Made by a program: the position numbers and the translations under genes. This document shows, in pieces, positions 1,211-48,374 of a stretch of 64,000 bases of DNA. How positions within the stretch are numbered: position 1 is the first letter of the stretch; each line of letters starts with the position of its first letter. Source of the DNA: Escherichia coli (GTDB taxonomy: Bacteria; Pseudomonadota; Gammaproteobacteria; Enterobacterales; Enterobacteriaceae); NCBI RefSeq assembly GCF_046105845.1, contig NZ_CP151004.1; one strand, written 5' to 3'. The notes beneath the pieces were generated by a model, which was not told the origin of the DNA, searched no databases, and saw nothing but the letters and a program-made list of their open reading frames with translations.

Positions 1211-1374
1211 TTTGCAATAGCGTAATGGCGCGCCGTGGGAAGCGCGGACATTAATTAACCAACTGCACTGCGTGTCTTTCAGGATCAAAGGTTTTCGCGG
1301 TAGCGGGATGCGTCGTGTTGATGACGACCATGCCCGACAGTTGCAATTCGTGGCAAAAATGCAGGAATAAAACA

Positions 1375-3615
1375 ATGAACAAGAAGATTCATTCCCTGGC
1401 CTTGTTGGTCAATCTGGGGATTTATGGGGTAGCACAGGCACAAGAGCCAATCGATACTCCTGTTTCACATGACGATACCATTGTCGTTACCGCCGCCGAG
1501 CAGAACTTGCAGGCACCTGGCGTTTCGACCATCACCGCAGATGAAATCCGCAAAAACCCGGTTGCCCGCGATGTGTCGGAGATCATCCGTACCATGCCAG
1601 GCGTTAACCTGACCGGTAACTCCACCAGTGGTCAGCGTGGTAATAACCGCCAGATTGATATTCGCGGCATGGGTCCGGAAAACACGCTGATTTTGATTGA
1701 CGGCAAGCCGGTAAGCAGCCGTAACTCGGTGCGTCAGGGCTGGCGTGGCGAGCGCGATACCCGTGGTGATACCTCCTGGGTGCCACCTGAAATGATTGAA
1801 CGTATTGAAGTTCTGCGTGGTCCGGCAGCTGCGCGTTATGGCAACGGCGCGGCGGGCGGCGTGGTTAACATCATTACCAAAAAAGGCAGTGGTGAGTGGC
1901 ACGGCTCGTGGGACGCATATTTCAATGCGCCAGAACATAAAGAGGAAGGTGCCACCAAACGCACTAACTTTAGCCTCACCGGTCCGCTGGGCGACGAATT
2001 CAGCTTCCGCTTGTATGGCAACCTCGACAAAACTCAGGCTGACGCGTGGGATATCAACCAGGGCCATCAGTCCGCGCGTGCCGGAACGTATGCCACGACG
2101 TTACCAGCCGGGCGCGAAGGGGTAATTAACAAAGATATTAATGGCGTGGTGCGCTGGGACTTCGCGCCTCTGCAATCACTCGAACTGGAAGCGGGCTACA
2201 GCCGCCAGGGTAACCTGTATGCGGGCGACACCCAGAACACCAACTCTGACTCCTATACCCGCTCGAAATATGGCGATGAAACCAACCGTCTGTATCGCCA
2301 GAACTACTCGCTGACATGGAACGGCGGCTGGGATAACGGCGTGACCACCAGCAACTGGGTGCAGTACGAACACACCCGTAACTCGCGTATTCCGGAAGGT
2401 CTGGCGGGCGGTACCGAAGGGAAATTTAACGAAAAAGCGACACAGGATTTCGTCGATATCGATCTCGATGACGTGATGCTGCACAGCGAAGTTAACCTGC
2501 CGATTGATTTCCTCGTTAACCAGACGCTGACGCTGGGTACGGAGTGGAATCAGCAGCGGATGAAGGATTTAAGTTCCAACACCCAGGCGCTGACCGGAAC
2601 GAATACCGGTGGCGCTATTGATGGCGTGAGTGCCACCGACCGTAGCCCGTATTCAAAAGCAGAAATTTTCTCGCTGTTTGCCGAAAACAACATGGAGCTG
2701 ACTGACAGCACCATCGTAACGCCGGGGCTGCGTTTCGATCATCACAGTATTGTCGGCAATAACTGGAGCCCGGCGCTGAACATATCGCAAGGTTTAGGCG
2801 ATGACTTCACGCTGAAAATGGGCATTGCCCGTGCTTATAAAGCGCCGAGTCTGTACCAGACTAACCCGAACTACATTCTCTACAGTAAAGGTCAGGGCTG
2901 CTATGCCAGCGCGGGCGGCTGCTATCTGCAAGGTAACGATGACCTGAAAGCGGAAACCAGCATCAACAAAGAGATTGGTCTGGAGTTCAAACGCGACGGC
3001 TGGCTGGCGGGCGTCACCTGGTTCCGTAACGATTATCGCAATAAGATTGAAGCGGGCTATGTGGCTGTAGGGCAAAACGCAGTCGGCACCGATCTCTATC
3101 AGTGGGATAACGTGCCGAAAGCGGTGGTTGAAGGTCTGGAAGGATCGTTAAACGTACCGGTTAGCGAAACGGTGATGTGGACTAATAACATCACTTATAT
3201 GCTGAAGAGTGAAAACAAAACCACGGGCGACCGTTTGTCGATCATCCCGGAGTATACGTTGAACTCAACGCTGAGCTGGCAGGCACGAGAAGATTTGTCG
3301 ATGCAAACGACCTTCACCTGGTACGGTAAGCAGCAGCCGAAGAAGTACAACTATAAAGGTCAGCCAGCGGTTGGCCCGGAAACCAAAGAAATCAGTCCTT
3401 ACAGCATTGTGGGTCTGAGCGCGACCTGGGATGTGACGAAGAATGTCAGTCTGACCGGCGGCGTGGACAACCTGTTCGACAAACGTTTGTGGCGTGCGGG
3501 TAATGCCCAGACCACGGGCGATCTGGCAGGGGCCAACTATATCGCCGGTGCCGGGGCGTATACCTATAACGAGCCGGGACGTACGTGGTATATGAGCGTA
3601 AACACCCACTTCTGA
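1375..3615 (+). CDS. fepA: TonB-dependent outer membrane ferric enterobactin receptor FepA (746 aa)
   Basis: ORF 1315..3615; product starts MNKKIHSLALLVNLGIYGVAQA (signal peptide), has a TonB box-like DDTIVVTA and C-terminal ...YMSVNTHF; start placed at the internal ATG 1375. Confidence 0.93.
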   Translation: MNKKIHSLALLVNLGIYGVAQAQEPIDTPVSHDDTIVVTAAEQNLQAPGVSTITADEIRKNPVARDVSEIIRTMPGVNLTGNSTSGQRGNNRQIDIRGMGPENTLILIDGKPVSSRNSVRQGWRGERDTRGDTSWVPPEMIERIEVLRGPAAARYGNGAAGGVVNIITKKGSGEWHGSWDAYFNAPEHKEEGATKRTNFSLTGPLGDEFSFRLYGNLDKTQADAWDINQGHQSARAGTYATTLPAGREGVINKDINGVVRWDFAPLQSLELEAGYSRQGNLYAGDTQNTNSDSYTRSKYGDETNRLYRQNYSLTWNGGWDNGVTTSNWVQYEHTRNSRIPEGLAGGTEGKFNEKATQDFVDIDLDDVMLHSEVNLPIDFLVNQTLTLGTEWNQQRMKDLSSNTQALTGTNTGGAIDGVSATDRSPYSKAEIFSLFAENNMELTDSTIVTPGLRFDHHSIVGNNWSPALNISQGLGDDFTLKMGIARAYKAPSLYQTNPNYILYSKGQGCYASAGGCYLQGNDDLKAETSINKEIGLEFKRDGWLAGVTWFRNDYRNKIEAGYVAVGQNAVGTDLYQWDNVPKAVVEGLEGSLNVPVSETVMWTNNITYMLKSENKTTGDRLSIIPEYTLNSTLSWQAREDLSMQTTFTWYGKQQPKKYNYKGQPAVGPETKEISPYSIVGLSATWDVTKNVSLTGGVDNLFDKRLWRAGNAQTTGDLAGANYIAGAGAYTYNEPGRTWYMSVNTHF

Positions 3616-3654
3616 TGCTAACGTCAGATTGTTGACAAAGTGCGCGTCGTTCAT

Positions 3655-3752
3655 GCCGGATGCGGCGTGAACGCCTTATCAGGCCTACAAAAATCTTGTC
3701 AATTCAATATATTGCAGGACCACGTAGGCCTGATAAGCGTAGCGCATCAGGC
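3655..3752. repeat. BIME: pair of inverted REP elements
   Basis: gccggatgcggcgtgaacgccttatcaggcctac ... gtaggcctgataagcgtagcgcatcaggc, the typical REP palindromic unit in the fepA-entD intergenic region. Confidence 0.8.
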
Positions 3753-3780
3753 AGTTTTGCGTTTGTCATCATTCTCTAAT

Positions 3781-4410
3781 ATGGTCGACATGAAAACTAC
3801 GCATACCTCCCTCCCCTTTGCAGGACATACGCTGCATTTTGTTGAGTTTGATCCGGCGAGTTTTCGCGAGCAGGATTTACTCTGGCTGCCACACTACGCA
3901 CAACTGCAACACGCTGGACGTAAACGTAAAACAGAGCATTTAGCTGGACGGATCGCTGCTGTTTATGCCTTGCGGGAATATGGCTATAAATATGTGCCCG
4001 CTATCGGCGAGCTACGCCAACCTGTGTGGCCTGCGGAGGTATACGGCAGTATTAGCCACTGCGGGACTACGGCATTAGCCGTGGTATCTCGTCAACCGAT
4101 TGGCATTGATATCGAAGAGATTTTCTCTGTACAAATCGCAAGAGAATTGACAGACAACATTATTACACCAGCAGAACACGAGCGACTCGCAGAATGCGGT
4201 TTAACCTTTTCTCTGGCGCTGACACTGGCATTTTCCGCCAAAGAGAGCGCATTTAAGGCAAGCAAGATACAGGCCGCTCAAGGTTTTCTGGATTATCAGA
4301 TAATTAGCTGGAATAAACAGCGGATCATCATTCGACTAGAGGATGAGCAGTTTGCTGTGCACTGGCATATAAAAGAAAAGATAGTCATAACGCTGTGCCA
4401 ACACGATTAA
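3781..4410 (+). CDS. entD: Enterobactin synthase 4'-phosphopantetheinyl transferase EntD (209 aa)
   Basis: Within ORF 3640..4410; start placed at ATG 3781 (MVDMKTTHTSLPFAGHTLHF...), giving 209 aa; immediately downstream of fepA as in E. coli. Confidence 0.85.
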   Translation: MVDMKTTHTSLPFAGHTLHFVEFDPASFREQDLLWLPHYAQLQHAGRKRKTEHLAGRIAAVYALREYGYKYVPAIGELRQPVWPAEVYGSISHCGTTALAVVSRQPIGIDIEEIFSVQIARELTDNIITPAEHERLAECGLTFSLALTLAFSAKESAFKASKIQAAQGFLDYQIISWNKQRIIIRLEDEQFAVHWHIKEKIVITLCQHD

Positions 4411-4531
4411 TTGACAACTTCTGGTACGATTCGCCCGCAGCCATTGCTGACCGCGGGCGAAAGTGTAAAGCAGGTGCCTTACCATCCTGACCTGACAACC
4501 GGATATGCGGGGATTGCTCCCAACACAACGG

Positions 4532-4684
4532 CTACTTCTTCGGTTCGTAAGCGAGAACAGCCTTAAACTCAATATTACGTTCCTTCACCGTAAACTCACA
4601 CAGCGAGTCTCCGACCAGAAGCGTAAATCCCAGCACCGTTAAACACAGCACTATGACTGCCACAAGGGCATATTTCGTCAGCAT
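4532..4684 (-). CDS. hokE: Hok family host-killing membrane toxin (50 aa), copy 1
   Basis: [50 protein letters not shown]; small hydrophobic Hok-type peptide; start placed at the internal ATG of ORF 4532..4720. Confidence 0.85.
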
Positions 4685-4784
4685 GTTTATATTGCCTCCA
4701 TGCGAAGAAGGGACTACCATCCAAATTGTTCAGGTTTGGGTAGGTAGCCCCAGGGTTGATAGAAATATCGTCCTGGGGCTTCAT
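4596..4784 (-). CDS. mokE: mok (modulation of killing) reading frame overlapping hok, copy 1
   Basis: 62-aa ORF in a different frame overlapping the hok 5' region, the canonical hok/mok arrangement; conserved in copy 2. Confidence 0.55.
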
Positions 4785-5035
4785 CTTTCCAGACCTCAGA
4801 GTTAACCTGAAACCGGAAAGCTTCAGGCACCCGCCGTTATCTTACCCTTCCTCAGCAAAATAGCTGTTTATTTATACAGTGAATCCTGTTTCGGACTTCT
4901 GTTGGCAAAACTGATCATTGCCCTTAAAACGACATCGCCCGCAGCCATTGCTGACCGCGGGCGAAAGTGTAAAACAGGTGCCTTACCACCCTGACCTGAC
5001 AACCGGATATGCGGGGATTACTCCCCGCACAACGG

Positions 5036-5188
5036 CTACTTCTTCGGTTCGTAAGCGAGAACAGCCTTAAACTCAATATTACGTTCCTTCACCGTAAACT
5101 CACACAGCGAGTCTCCGACCAGAAGCGTAAATCCCAGCACCGTCAAACACAGCACTATGACTGCCGCAAGGGCATATTTCGTCAGCAT
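5036..5188 (-). CDS. hokE: Hok family toxin (50 aa), copy 2 (V8A relative to copy 1)
   Basis: [50 protein letters not shown]. Confidence 0.85.
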
Positions 5189-5288
5189 GTTTATATTGCC
5201 TCCATGCGAAGAAGGGACTACCATCCAAATTGTTTGGGTTTGGAGTGGCAGCCCCAGGGTTGATAGAAATATCGTCCTGGGGCTTCAT
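5100..5288 (-). CDS. mokE: mok reading frame overlapping hok, copy 2
   Basis: 62-aa ORF with 3 substitutions relative to the copy 1 mok; same overlap geometry. Confidence 0.55.
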
Positions 5289-5622
5289 CTTTCCAGACCT
5301 CAGAGTTAACCTGAAACCGGAAAGCTTCAGGCACCCGCCGTTATCTTACCCTTCTTCAGCAAAATGGCTGTTTATTTATACAGTGAGTCCTGTTTCGGAC
5401 TTCTCAATCCTCATTTGATCAACTGAAGCTGAACCCGTTTTTTTTCTGCATGCCTCAATCGTCAAAATTCTTCGCCACCAGTCCGCACTGCCATAACTTG
5501 TCATATTGCAAAATGTAGCCAATTTGCTTCAGTCACCATCATCAAAAAAAGAAACATTCCAGAACTTCCGCATCTCGCCCAGTCGCTCCCACTTCTATAC
5601 TGAATAGAAAACGCCAACATAA

Positions 5623-9601: not shown

Positions 9602-9645
9602 AAAAAAACCGCTCTCATCGAATGGATGAGAGCGGACATCGTTTT
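9602..9645. terminator. Bidirectional rho-independent terminator between convergent ybdG and pheP
   Basis: Hairpin ccgctctcatc-gaatg-gatgagagcgg flanked by an A-tract and a T-tract. Confidence 0.7.
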
Positions 9646-9666
9646 GTCGGATGTAGCGTGAATGCC

Positions 9667-11043
9667 TTATTTCCGACGCAGCGTTTTAAACGCTACAAAC
9701 AGGAATACAATCCACACTGGCAGCAGAATCGCTGACAAGCGCATATCATCCATCGTGCACATCAGCAGCAAAATCATGCCGAGGAAGGCGATGCAGAGAT
9801 AGTTGCCGAACGGATAGAGCAGCGCCTTAAACTGTGTTTCACGTCCCTGACGTCGCATCGCCGCGCGAAAACGCAGATGCGCCAGGCAGATCATAATCCA
9901 GTTCAACAGCAGCGTTGCTACCACCAGCGCCATCAGCAGACCAAACGCTTTTTGCGGCAGCAGATAGTTGATTAACACCACCAGCGAAGTGATGGCTCCG
10001 GAAAGCATCAGCGAGTTAATCGGCACGCCGCGACGGCTGACGCGAGTCAAAAACTTCGGTGCATTACCCTGCACAGAAAGGCCAAACAGCATCCGACTGT
10101 TAGAGTAAACCCCGCTGTTATACACCGATAATGATGCTACCAGAATGACGAAGTTCAGCGCAGAAGCTACCACGTTGCTGTCGAGATTATGGAAAATCAT
10201 CACAAACGGGCTACTGTTGGATTTCACTTCCACCCACGGATAGAGTGCCAGTAAAACCACCAGTGAACCGATATAAAACAGCAGGATTCGATACACCACC
10301 TGATTCACTGCTTTCGGGATGCTTTTTTCCGGATCGCGCGCTTCAGCCGCAGTAATCCCAATCAGCTCCAGACCGCCGAAGGAGAACATAATTACCGCCA
10401 GCGACAAAATCAGCCCATTCCAGCCGGTGGCGAAGAAACCACCGTAGCGCCAGAGGTTGTCGATACTGGCTTTCTCGCCGCCGTGACCAGAAAACAGCAG
10501 CCACAGGCCAAAGCCGATCATACCGATGATTGCCAGCACTTTAATCAGCGCAAACCAGAACTCGGTTTCGCCATATAAGCGCACGTTCACCAGGTTAACG
10601 GCGTTGATGATAATAAAGAAGGCGGCAGCCCAAATCCACGTTGGAACATCCGGGAACCAGTACTGCATATAGATGCCCGCAGCGGTCAGCTCTGCCATTC
10701 CCACCAGCACGAACATTACCCAGTAGTTCCAGCCAGAGAGGAAGCCCGCAAACGGTCCCCAGTATTTATAGGCAAAGTGGGCAAATGAACCGGATACCGG
10801 CTCTTCGACCACCATCTCGCCGAGCTGGCGCATAATCAGGAAAGCGATGATCCCGGCGACGCCGTAGCCCAGCAATACAGCCGGACCCGCCATCTGAATC
10901 GCCGGGCCAATGCCAAGAAACAGACCAGTACCAATTGCGCCACCCAGCGCAATCAGTTGAATATGACGGTTATGTAATCCGCGATGAAGCGTCGGCTCTT
11001 GATTCGACGCAGTATCTTCCGATACGGTTGACGCGTTTTTCAC
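9667..11043 (-). CDS. pheP: Phenylalanine-specific APC family permease PheP (458 aa, GTG start)
   Basis: Product ...KNASTVSEDTASNQEPTLHRGL...; start placed at GTG (plus-strand cac 11041-11043) to match the known MKNAS... N-terminus. Confidence 0.9.
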   Translation of the reverse strand: MKNASTVSEDTASNQEPTLHRGLHNRHIQLIALGGAIGTGLFLGIGPAIQMAGPAVLLGYGVAGIIAFLIMRQLGEMVVEEPVSGSFAHFAYKYWGPFAGFLSGWNYWVMFVLVGMAELTAAGIYMQYWFPDVPTWIWAAAFFIIINAVNLVNVRLYGETEFWFALIKVLAIIGMIGFGLWLLFSGHGGEKASIDNLWRYGGFFATGWNGLILSLAVIMFSFGGLELIGITAAEARDPEKSIPKAVNQVVYRILLFYIGSLVVLLALYPWVEVKSNSSPFVMIFHNLDSNVVASALNFVILVASLSVYNSGVYSNSRMLFGLSVQGNAPKFLTRVSRRGVPINSLMLSGAITSLVVLINYLLPQKAFGLLMALVVATLLLNWIMICLAHLRFRAAMRRQGRETQFKALLYPFGNYLCIAFLGMILLLMCTMDDMRLSAILLPVWIVFLFVAFKTLRRK

Positions 11044-40054: not shown

Positions 40055-40072
40055 CCTGGTGCTCATTTGATT

Positions 40073-40152
40073 GCCGGATGCGGCGTGAACGCCTTATCCG
40101 ACCTGTGGAAACAGTGATATTTCCAGGTCGGATAATCAGCATCGCATCAGGC
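40073..40152. repeat. BIME: pair of inverted REP elements
   Basis: gccggatgcggcgtgaacgccttatccgacct ... aggtcggataatcagcatcgcatcaggc. Confidence 0.8.
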
Positions 40153-40173
40153 ACAAATACCGAATGCCTACGA

Positions 40174-48245: not shown

Positions 48246-48374
48246 GTCATACCACTCGCCTGATTATTTTTAGCTATGTTGGATTTTGCCACGGTTTATA
48301 CCGTGGCTTTTTTTGCGGTAAATTCAGGTAAAAAACGGATGCGGGATAAAATGCATCCGCTCTAATGGCAAGAG

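Follow-up and report, generated by a model that had tools for sequence, protein, structure and literature searches.

Two extragenic repeats assigned to BIME-1 and a REP cluster of another class in a 64,000-nucleotide window of Escherichia coli

BIME-1 elements, also named RIB (reiterative IHF BIME) or RIP (repetitive IHF-binding palindromic) elements, have been known since the early 1990s. They are defined as one Y-type and one Z1-type REP (palindromic unit) in single copy, separated by a long conserved linker (L) that often contains an IHF site (PMC3333891, PMC2817692). BIME-2 elements combine Y and Z2 units with a short S linker, form tandem arrays and carry gyrase sites. Between strains, BIME-1 elements are present or absent and BIME-2 elements vary in length (PMC1187871). 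BIME-2, built of Y and Z2 units, is enriched for gyrase cleavage, whereas IHF sites show a slight depletion (PMC6379681).

The effect of REPs on expression has been described in several gene arrangements. Stabilisation by REPs is context-dependent and coupled to partial Rho-dependent termination. REPs in tandem gene pairs are associated with upstream-biased expression, and those in convergent pairs with raised expression of both genes. The effects vary widely between loci and there is no general effect on half-life (bioRxiv 10.64898/2026.03.23.713779).

Here we describe three REP loci in one stretch of E. coli DNA (contig NZ_CP151004.1, assembly GCF_046105845.1), of which all 64,000 nucleotides are referred to as the window. 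A first-pass annotation had reported the same BIME architecture at three places, between fepA and entD (3655-3752), after purK (40073-40152) and before ybbP (61777-61874). The naming of these elements as BIMEs made of REPs was correct, as was the gene context, and matches to the Y-type and Z1-type REP patterns fall on the positions given. The element at 61777-61874 lies after ybbP in the transcriptional sense, not before it, as this gene is on the minus strand. A common architecture was confirmed for the fepA-entD and ybbP elements (copies 1 and 2 hereafter) but not for 40073-40152, where the spacer is unrelated and the second REP is of a shortened Z2-like type (Table 1). We conclude, with a probability of about 0.9, that 3624-3781 and 61746-61890 are members of the BIME-1 (RIB/RIP) family and that 40072-40153 is a reduced BIME-2 or an atypical cluster allele. 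The annotation under the matches is fepA-entD, purK-ybcF, and dinQ with ybbP. No REP or RIP repeat features are annotated at these sites in the current K-12 RefSeq record.

Table 1. REP units, linkers, flanks and adjoining genes at the three loci, numbered from the first letter of the window
Feature	Position	Strand	Remarks
fepA	1315-3615	+	stop codon 3613-3615
Copy 1, left flank	3624-3653	+	begins 8 nt past fepA stop; 121-copy consensus has ~28 conserved nt left of Y REP (TCAGATTGCTGACAAAGTGCGCTTTGTTC)
Copy 1, Y-type REP	3654-3688	+	pattern match 3655-3687, 0 mismatches; hairpin -15.1 kcal/mol
Copy 1, L motif (long linker)	3689-3723	+	ATTCAATATATTG at 3701-3713, one mismatch against IHF core WATCAANNNNTTR
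Copy 1, Z1-type REP	3724-3753	-	exact pattern match 3724-3752; tail-to-tail with Y REP
Copy 1, right flank	3754-3781	+	family consensus ATTTTGCGTTTGTCATCAGTCTCAA; imperfect inverted repeat of left flank; ends just before entD start region
entD	starts 3790 or 3781 (ATG at both)	+	start taken from K-12 annotation
purK	ends 40054	+	
purK locus, Y-type REP	40072-40105	+	variant tail CCGACCTG; pattern match 40073-40105; 18 nt past purK stop
purK locus, spacer	40106-40123	no strand	18 nt, TGGAAACAGTGATATTTC; unrelated to L motif
purK locus, shortened Z2-like REP	40124-40153	-	~30 nt; not Z1
ybcF	ends 40174	-	convergent with purK
Copy 2, left flank	61746-61775	+	weaker match to family flank
Copy 2, Y-type REP	61776-61810	+	pattern match 61777-61809, one mismatch
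Copy 2, L motif	61811-61845	+	exact IHF core AATCAATATATTG at 61823-61835
Copy 2, Z1-type REP	61846-61875	-	exact pattern match 61846-61874; 15-16 nt downstream of ybbP stop on ybbP transcript
Copy 2, right flank	61876-61890	+	truncated; abuts ybbP stop codon
ybbP	stop codon 61891-61893	-	

Copies 1 and 2 each consist of one Y-L-Z1 unit with no tandem iteration. Both are extragenic and located at gene 3' ends, copy 1 after the fepA stop and copy 2 after the ybbP stop. Copy 1 occupies essentially all of the 174-nt space between fepA and entD. The Z1 REPs of the two copies are 100% identical, followed by the Y REPs (91%) and the central segments (78%). The left flanks (68%) and right flanks (57%) are less similar, and identity over the whole 158-nt stretch is 79%. 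The Z1 units of both copies are shorter than the Z2 units at the purK locus of K-12. The units at 3724-3752 and 61846-61874 are named after what we take to be the Z1 consensus. The left and right flanks presumably correspond to the 'A' and 'B' motifs of the older BIME nomenclature. In strain SCPM-O-B-8794 the orthologue of copy 2 has a left flank that is more A-like than that in the window.

The Y REP pattern matched with 0 or 1 mismatch at the three loci and had zero matches in 100 shuffles of the window; the same number of shuffles gave zero matches to the Z1 REP pattern. The central segments (approximately 36 nt) both contain AATCTTGNNAANTCAATATATTGCA exactly, at 3692-3716 and 61813-61837. 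This L pattern has 22 specified bases and was not matched in 100 window shuffles even when 3 mismatches were allowed. Because of this exact shared pattern, the centres of 3655-3752 and 61777-61874 cannot be called unrelated, which was the outcome that the first-pass annotation had itself named as refuting its observation. For the central segment, gapped global alignment separates poorly from chance, with 28 matches where the best of the random 35-mers had 26, and the pattern and shuffle test was used in its place. The warning that the repeats could confuse assembly or read mapping is of minor weight. The longest exact run common to both copies is approximately 32 nt (by eye from the repeat and alignment output), so the problem is confined to very short reads or small k-mers.

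The self-repeat analysis of the window extended the similarity past the ends first reported, to 3629-3772 and 61751-61894. The family was collected by scanning one genome per species for an exact pattern inside L, which returned at least 120 stretches. Among the matches listed, 27 family members each are from E. albertii and E. whittamii, and more are from Pseudocitrobacter and from E. coli-labelled representatives. In a consensus of 121 copies, drawn from several Escherichia and Pseudocitrobacter genomes, conservation continues past the REPs by approximately 28 nt on the left side and 25 nt on the right. Each flank is an imperfect inverted repeat of the other, and the unit taken whole is an imperfect palindrome. 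Given these conserved flanks, the unit is about 155 nt long, roughly 3624-3781 and 61746-61890, rather than about 100 bp as first described. This agrees with the 140 bp given for BIME-1 (PMC1187871). Copy 1 in its entirety is 90% identical to the family consensus. The IHF core is found within one mismatch in 119 of the 121 copies and exactly in 8, although conservation of L is inflated in a sample picked by an exact pattern within it; copy 1 is one mismatch off. Some of the listed matches fall in metagenome bins or short contigs that carry the labels Desulfosporosinus, Methylobacterium, Bacteroides, Alistipes, Collinsella, Alkalicoccobacillus and a Thermoproteota archaeon. These are probably enterobacterial contamination of public assemblies or the product of mis-binning.

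The REP pair at 40072-40153 is of a different class from BIME-1, and probably represents a short form of a BIME-2 or atypical cluster that varies between strains. Its spacer (40106-40123) has no match to the central L pattern. The second REP can be aligned with Z2 of the K-12 allele only if an internal deletion is allowed. The K-12 allele at purK-ybcF has the order Y, Z2, truncated Y-like unit, Z2 and is approximately 77 nt longer than that of the window, which has a single REP pair in place of tandem copies. Many allele lengths of this cluster are found among 5,426 complete E. coli genomes, and no more than 12 records reach 99% identity with the allele of the window. The shortened Z2-like unit, together with the change of both tails to CCGACCTG, indicates a decayed or rearranged allele.

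Copy 1 is present at the same site in K-12, in SCPM-O-B-8794 (a species representative) and in E. whittamii. Against E. whittamii, 6 of the 174 aligned intergenic positions differ (96.6% identity), whereas identity at third codon positions is 82% for fepA and 75% for entD (approximately 21% different overall; binomial p ~1e-11). This reduced divergence could in part be due to unusually fast third positions in the two genes and not to constraint on the repeat. All four fepA-entD orthologues have in common seven locus-specific differences from the family consensus, which points to vertical descent under constraint and not to replacement by another copy. The best identity for the fepA-entD junction (3300-4100) among the 5,426 genomes is 98.3%; the values for the ybbP and purK loci are 100% and 99.8%. 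As no genome exceeds 98.3%, this segment looks like a divergent or recombinant allele.

Copy 2 likewise has orthologues at its own position in SCPM-O-B-8794 and E. albertii. It is 91-93% identical, compared with 79-85% at ybbP third positions. In E. albertii and SCPM-O-B-8794 purK is just 1.4-2 kb from ybbP, and the allantoin gene region of E. coli is therefore absent there. Within E. coli the ybbP locus of the window is 100% identical to that of strain AST215. Copy 2 with the left context of the window (a dinQ-like gene) is found in 1,317 of the 5,426 genomes. The side of the element that faces away from ybbP varies within the species. K-12 has no BIME at ybbP and has the rhsD region instead; an ST131 strain likewise has no BIME, and has tssD and a DUF2931 gene. 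In genomes that are devoid of the ybbP BIME-1, homology to the window is lost at 61885-61889. Strain A0 34/86 has the arrangement Y-S-Z2-Y-L-Z1 directly between mnmH and ybbP. The presence or absence of the ybbP copy and the variable length of the purK cluster both fit the published rule for BIME-1 and BIME-2 (PMC1187871).

The 3' flank of ybbP (approximately 61180-61890) appears to be a hotspot for strain-specific inserts, with rhsD in K-12, tssD and the DUF2931 gene in ST131 and a dinQ-like module in the window. This module (61240-61745), which adjoins the BIME-1 in the 1,317 genomes, contains an ORF for a dinQ-like type I toxin at 61518-61673 (named dinQ by NCBI in AST215). An Rfam AgrB match lies at 61240-61328 on the minus strand. 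A hairpin, AAAAAAACCGACATGACAGTCGGTTT, is repeated at 61240-61273 and 61719-61745.

Each REP folds as a hairpin and the entire unit can be folded as one long hairpin (-65 kcal/mol, z = -7). The minimum-energy fold of copy 1 pairs the left flank with the right flank. Across 120 distinct copies the stem of the Y REP is paired in 94.4% of cells and that of Z1 in 96%, with a few double changes. The small stem within L is paired in only 62% of cells, a rough value given that the sample was chosen by the L pattern, which biases the stem-pairing test. The difference between L and the REP stems suggests that L is conserved as sequence, in the manner of a protein site, and not as an RNA stem.

The L stem is also the stem of the Rfam model ES036 (RF02751, CssrF). 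On one rival reading the central segments are genes for an sRNA of this family, which the REPs merely flank. The model scores 40.3 bits at 61811-61853, above the gathering score of 37.6, and 36.9 bits at 3690-3731, just under it. CssrF itself was reported from Shigella flexneri, as a Northern band of approximately 290 nt from the dacB-yhbZ interval (PMC3071730). However, the full length of the 43-nt model is taken up at both loci by the L motif and the first bases of the Z1 tail, and of 14 further BIME-1 loci, all from other species, it matches 5. It therefore describes the repeat and not one gene. The low pairing of the L stem argues in the same direction. The promoter scan of 3400-4000 found no promoter-like site and that of 61100-62000 found a sole site outside the BIME-1 element, and both copies lie within longer transcription units or at the 3' ends of these. 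We consider sRNA genes at these positions very improbable. It is just as hard to believe that the elements are ordinary intrinsic (Rho-independent) terminators that are alike by accident. They do place G+C-rich hairpins at gene 3' ends, but a poly-U tract is absent from most REPs (bioRxiv 10.64898/2026.03.23.713779) and in the terminator scan neither BIME-1 contained a hairpin followed by a U-tract. Locus 2 has a distinct hairpin, ending in a T-rich tail, upstream at 61724-61745. At locus 1 entD follows on the same strand with no promoter-like site between it and fepA. The two genes are co-transcribed. A chance likeness of G+C-rich palindromes has no credibility given the shuffles and the at least 120 homologous copies in other genomes. 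All three of these readings were rejected.

A further rival reading takes the elements as purely selfish, non-autonomous mobile DNA (REPIN- or MITE-like, moved by a REP-associated tyrosine transposase) that has no host function at these loci. The family is multi-copy, each unit with its inverted flanks forms an imperfect palindrome, the ybbP copy is found in some strains only, and a non-autonomous transposable nature has been suggested for BIMEs (PMC2817692, PMC3333891). Nevertheless, both copies are retained at the same sites in other Escherichia species, which argues against recent movement. Their divergence is far below that of neighbouring third codon positions and locus-specific signatures have been kept. 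The transposase gene of E. coli is flanked by Y and Z2, which are BIME-2 parts, and not by Z1 (PMC2817692). Moreover, DNA of mobile origin can still serve the host today. The elements probably arose as non-autonomous mobile DNA, but the copies described here are old and fixed in place; that they are selfish and nothing else is possible but rather doubtful.

The functions of the BIME-1 copies and of the purK cluster are proposed here by analogy. At the DNA level, IHF would bind and bend the L motif between the two REPs, as the literature on BIME-1 suggests (PMC3333891, PMC2817692). The main text of an IHF ChIP-seq paper makes no mention of repeats or of these genes. At the RNA level, the REP hairpins would be expected from published work to block 3'-to-5' exonucleases and to cause partial Rho-assisted termination. 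The three loci fit the published contexts, as fepA and entD stand in tandem and the genes at the other two loci are convergent. In the fepA-entD operon the REP effect would yield more fepA than entD message. In the convergent pairs (dinQ-like/ybbP and purK/ybcF) the palindromes would act in both directions. The role of mRNA 3' stabiliser put forward in the first-pass annotation is thus plausible on the same analogy. The accompanying suggestion of gyrase binding was misplaced for the two BIME-1 copies, as gyrase cleavage belongs to BIME-2 (PMC6379681). Because only the purK locus appears to be of BIME-2 lineage, it could apply at most there.

Two of the loci invite further remarks. Liang, Rudd and Deutscher reportedly found in 2015 that ribosomes can stall where a REP follows a stop codon within approximately 15 nt. 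The Z1 REP of copy 2, 15-16 nt past the ybbP stop, is near the distance at which REPs are reported to interfere with translation termination. The fepA-entD BIME-1 may be a selected control element internal to the operon, which would set the ratio of FepA, an abundant receptor, to EntD, a low-level enzyme, by means of a REP decay block and partial termination, possibly modulated by IHF. This is an unlikely proposal that draws on sequence comparison: the element fills the whole 174-nt space, the seven locus-specific bases have been kept since before the split of E. coli and E. whittamii, and 6 of 174 positions differ against approximately 21% of neighbouring third codon positions. Its slow divergence makes this copy a simple case in which to test whether a repeat tunes the expression of genes in one operon.

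Several other features were seen in the window. A hok/sok type I toxin-antitoxin module is tandemly duplicated at 4431-5336 with a unit of 504 nt and copies that are 96-98% identical. Rfam sok matches are found at 4676-4832 and 5180-5336 on the minus strand. The corresponding place in K-12 holds one hokE/sokE only, with IS186 after it. A solitary degenerate REP-like palindrome (GTCGGATGTAGCGTGAATGCCTTATTTCCGAC) is located at 9646-9677, just after a terminator-like hairpin (by eye) at approximately 9609-9636. A tRNA-Arg gene (anticodon TCT) is found at 26776-26852 on the minus strand, which we take to be argU, the site of the DLP12 prophage in K-12. The spacing of fepA and purK in the window suggests that there is no prophage at this tRNA gene. 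The Rfam enterobacterial sRNA STnc480 is matched at 48252-48318 on the minus strand with 84.9 bits.

The length and class of these elements have consequences for their annotation. Masking and annotation should treat the BIME-1 unit as approximately 155 nt and not 100 nt. BIME subtypes should not be pooled when IHF or gyrase binding is inferred. Matches to ES036 at BIME-1 sites are to be read as repeat matches and not as sRNA genes.

Among the described systems, ES036 aligns with both BIME-1 loci but acts as a model of the repeat and is not evidence of a gene. The REPINs of Pseudomonas and the REP doublets associated with RAYTs are also compound repeats of two inverted REPs and a spacer (PMC2817692, PMC3116915). 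Their REP sequences differ from those found here, and the copies in the window are old and positionally fixed. The purK locus resembles BIME-2 and atypical BIMEs in the Y REP, the short spacer, the apparently Z2-derived REP and the variation in length (PMC1187871). It differs in having one pair only and a Z2-like unit cut to approximately 30 nt, and the two BIME-1 copies do not belong to this class. Copies 1 and 2 are like BIME-1 in the tail-to-tail arrangement of Y and Z1 around an L linker with an IHF-type site, and in forming a single extragenic unit of approximately 140-155 nt at gene 3' ends that is present or absent between strains (PMC3333891, PMC1187871). K-12 contains the same fepA-entD copy. 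A long-known repeat family explains everything observed. No material difference from BIME-1 was found, copy 2 departing only in its weaker left flank and in a right flank shortened by the ybbP stop.
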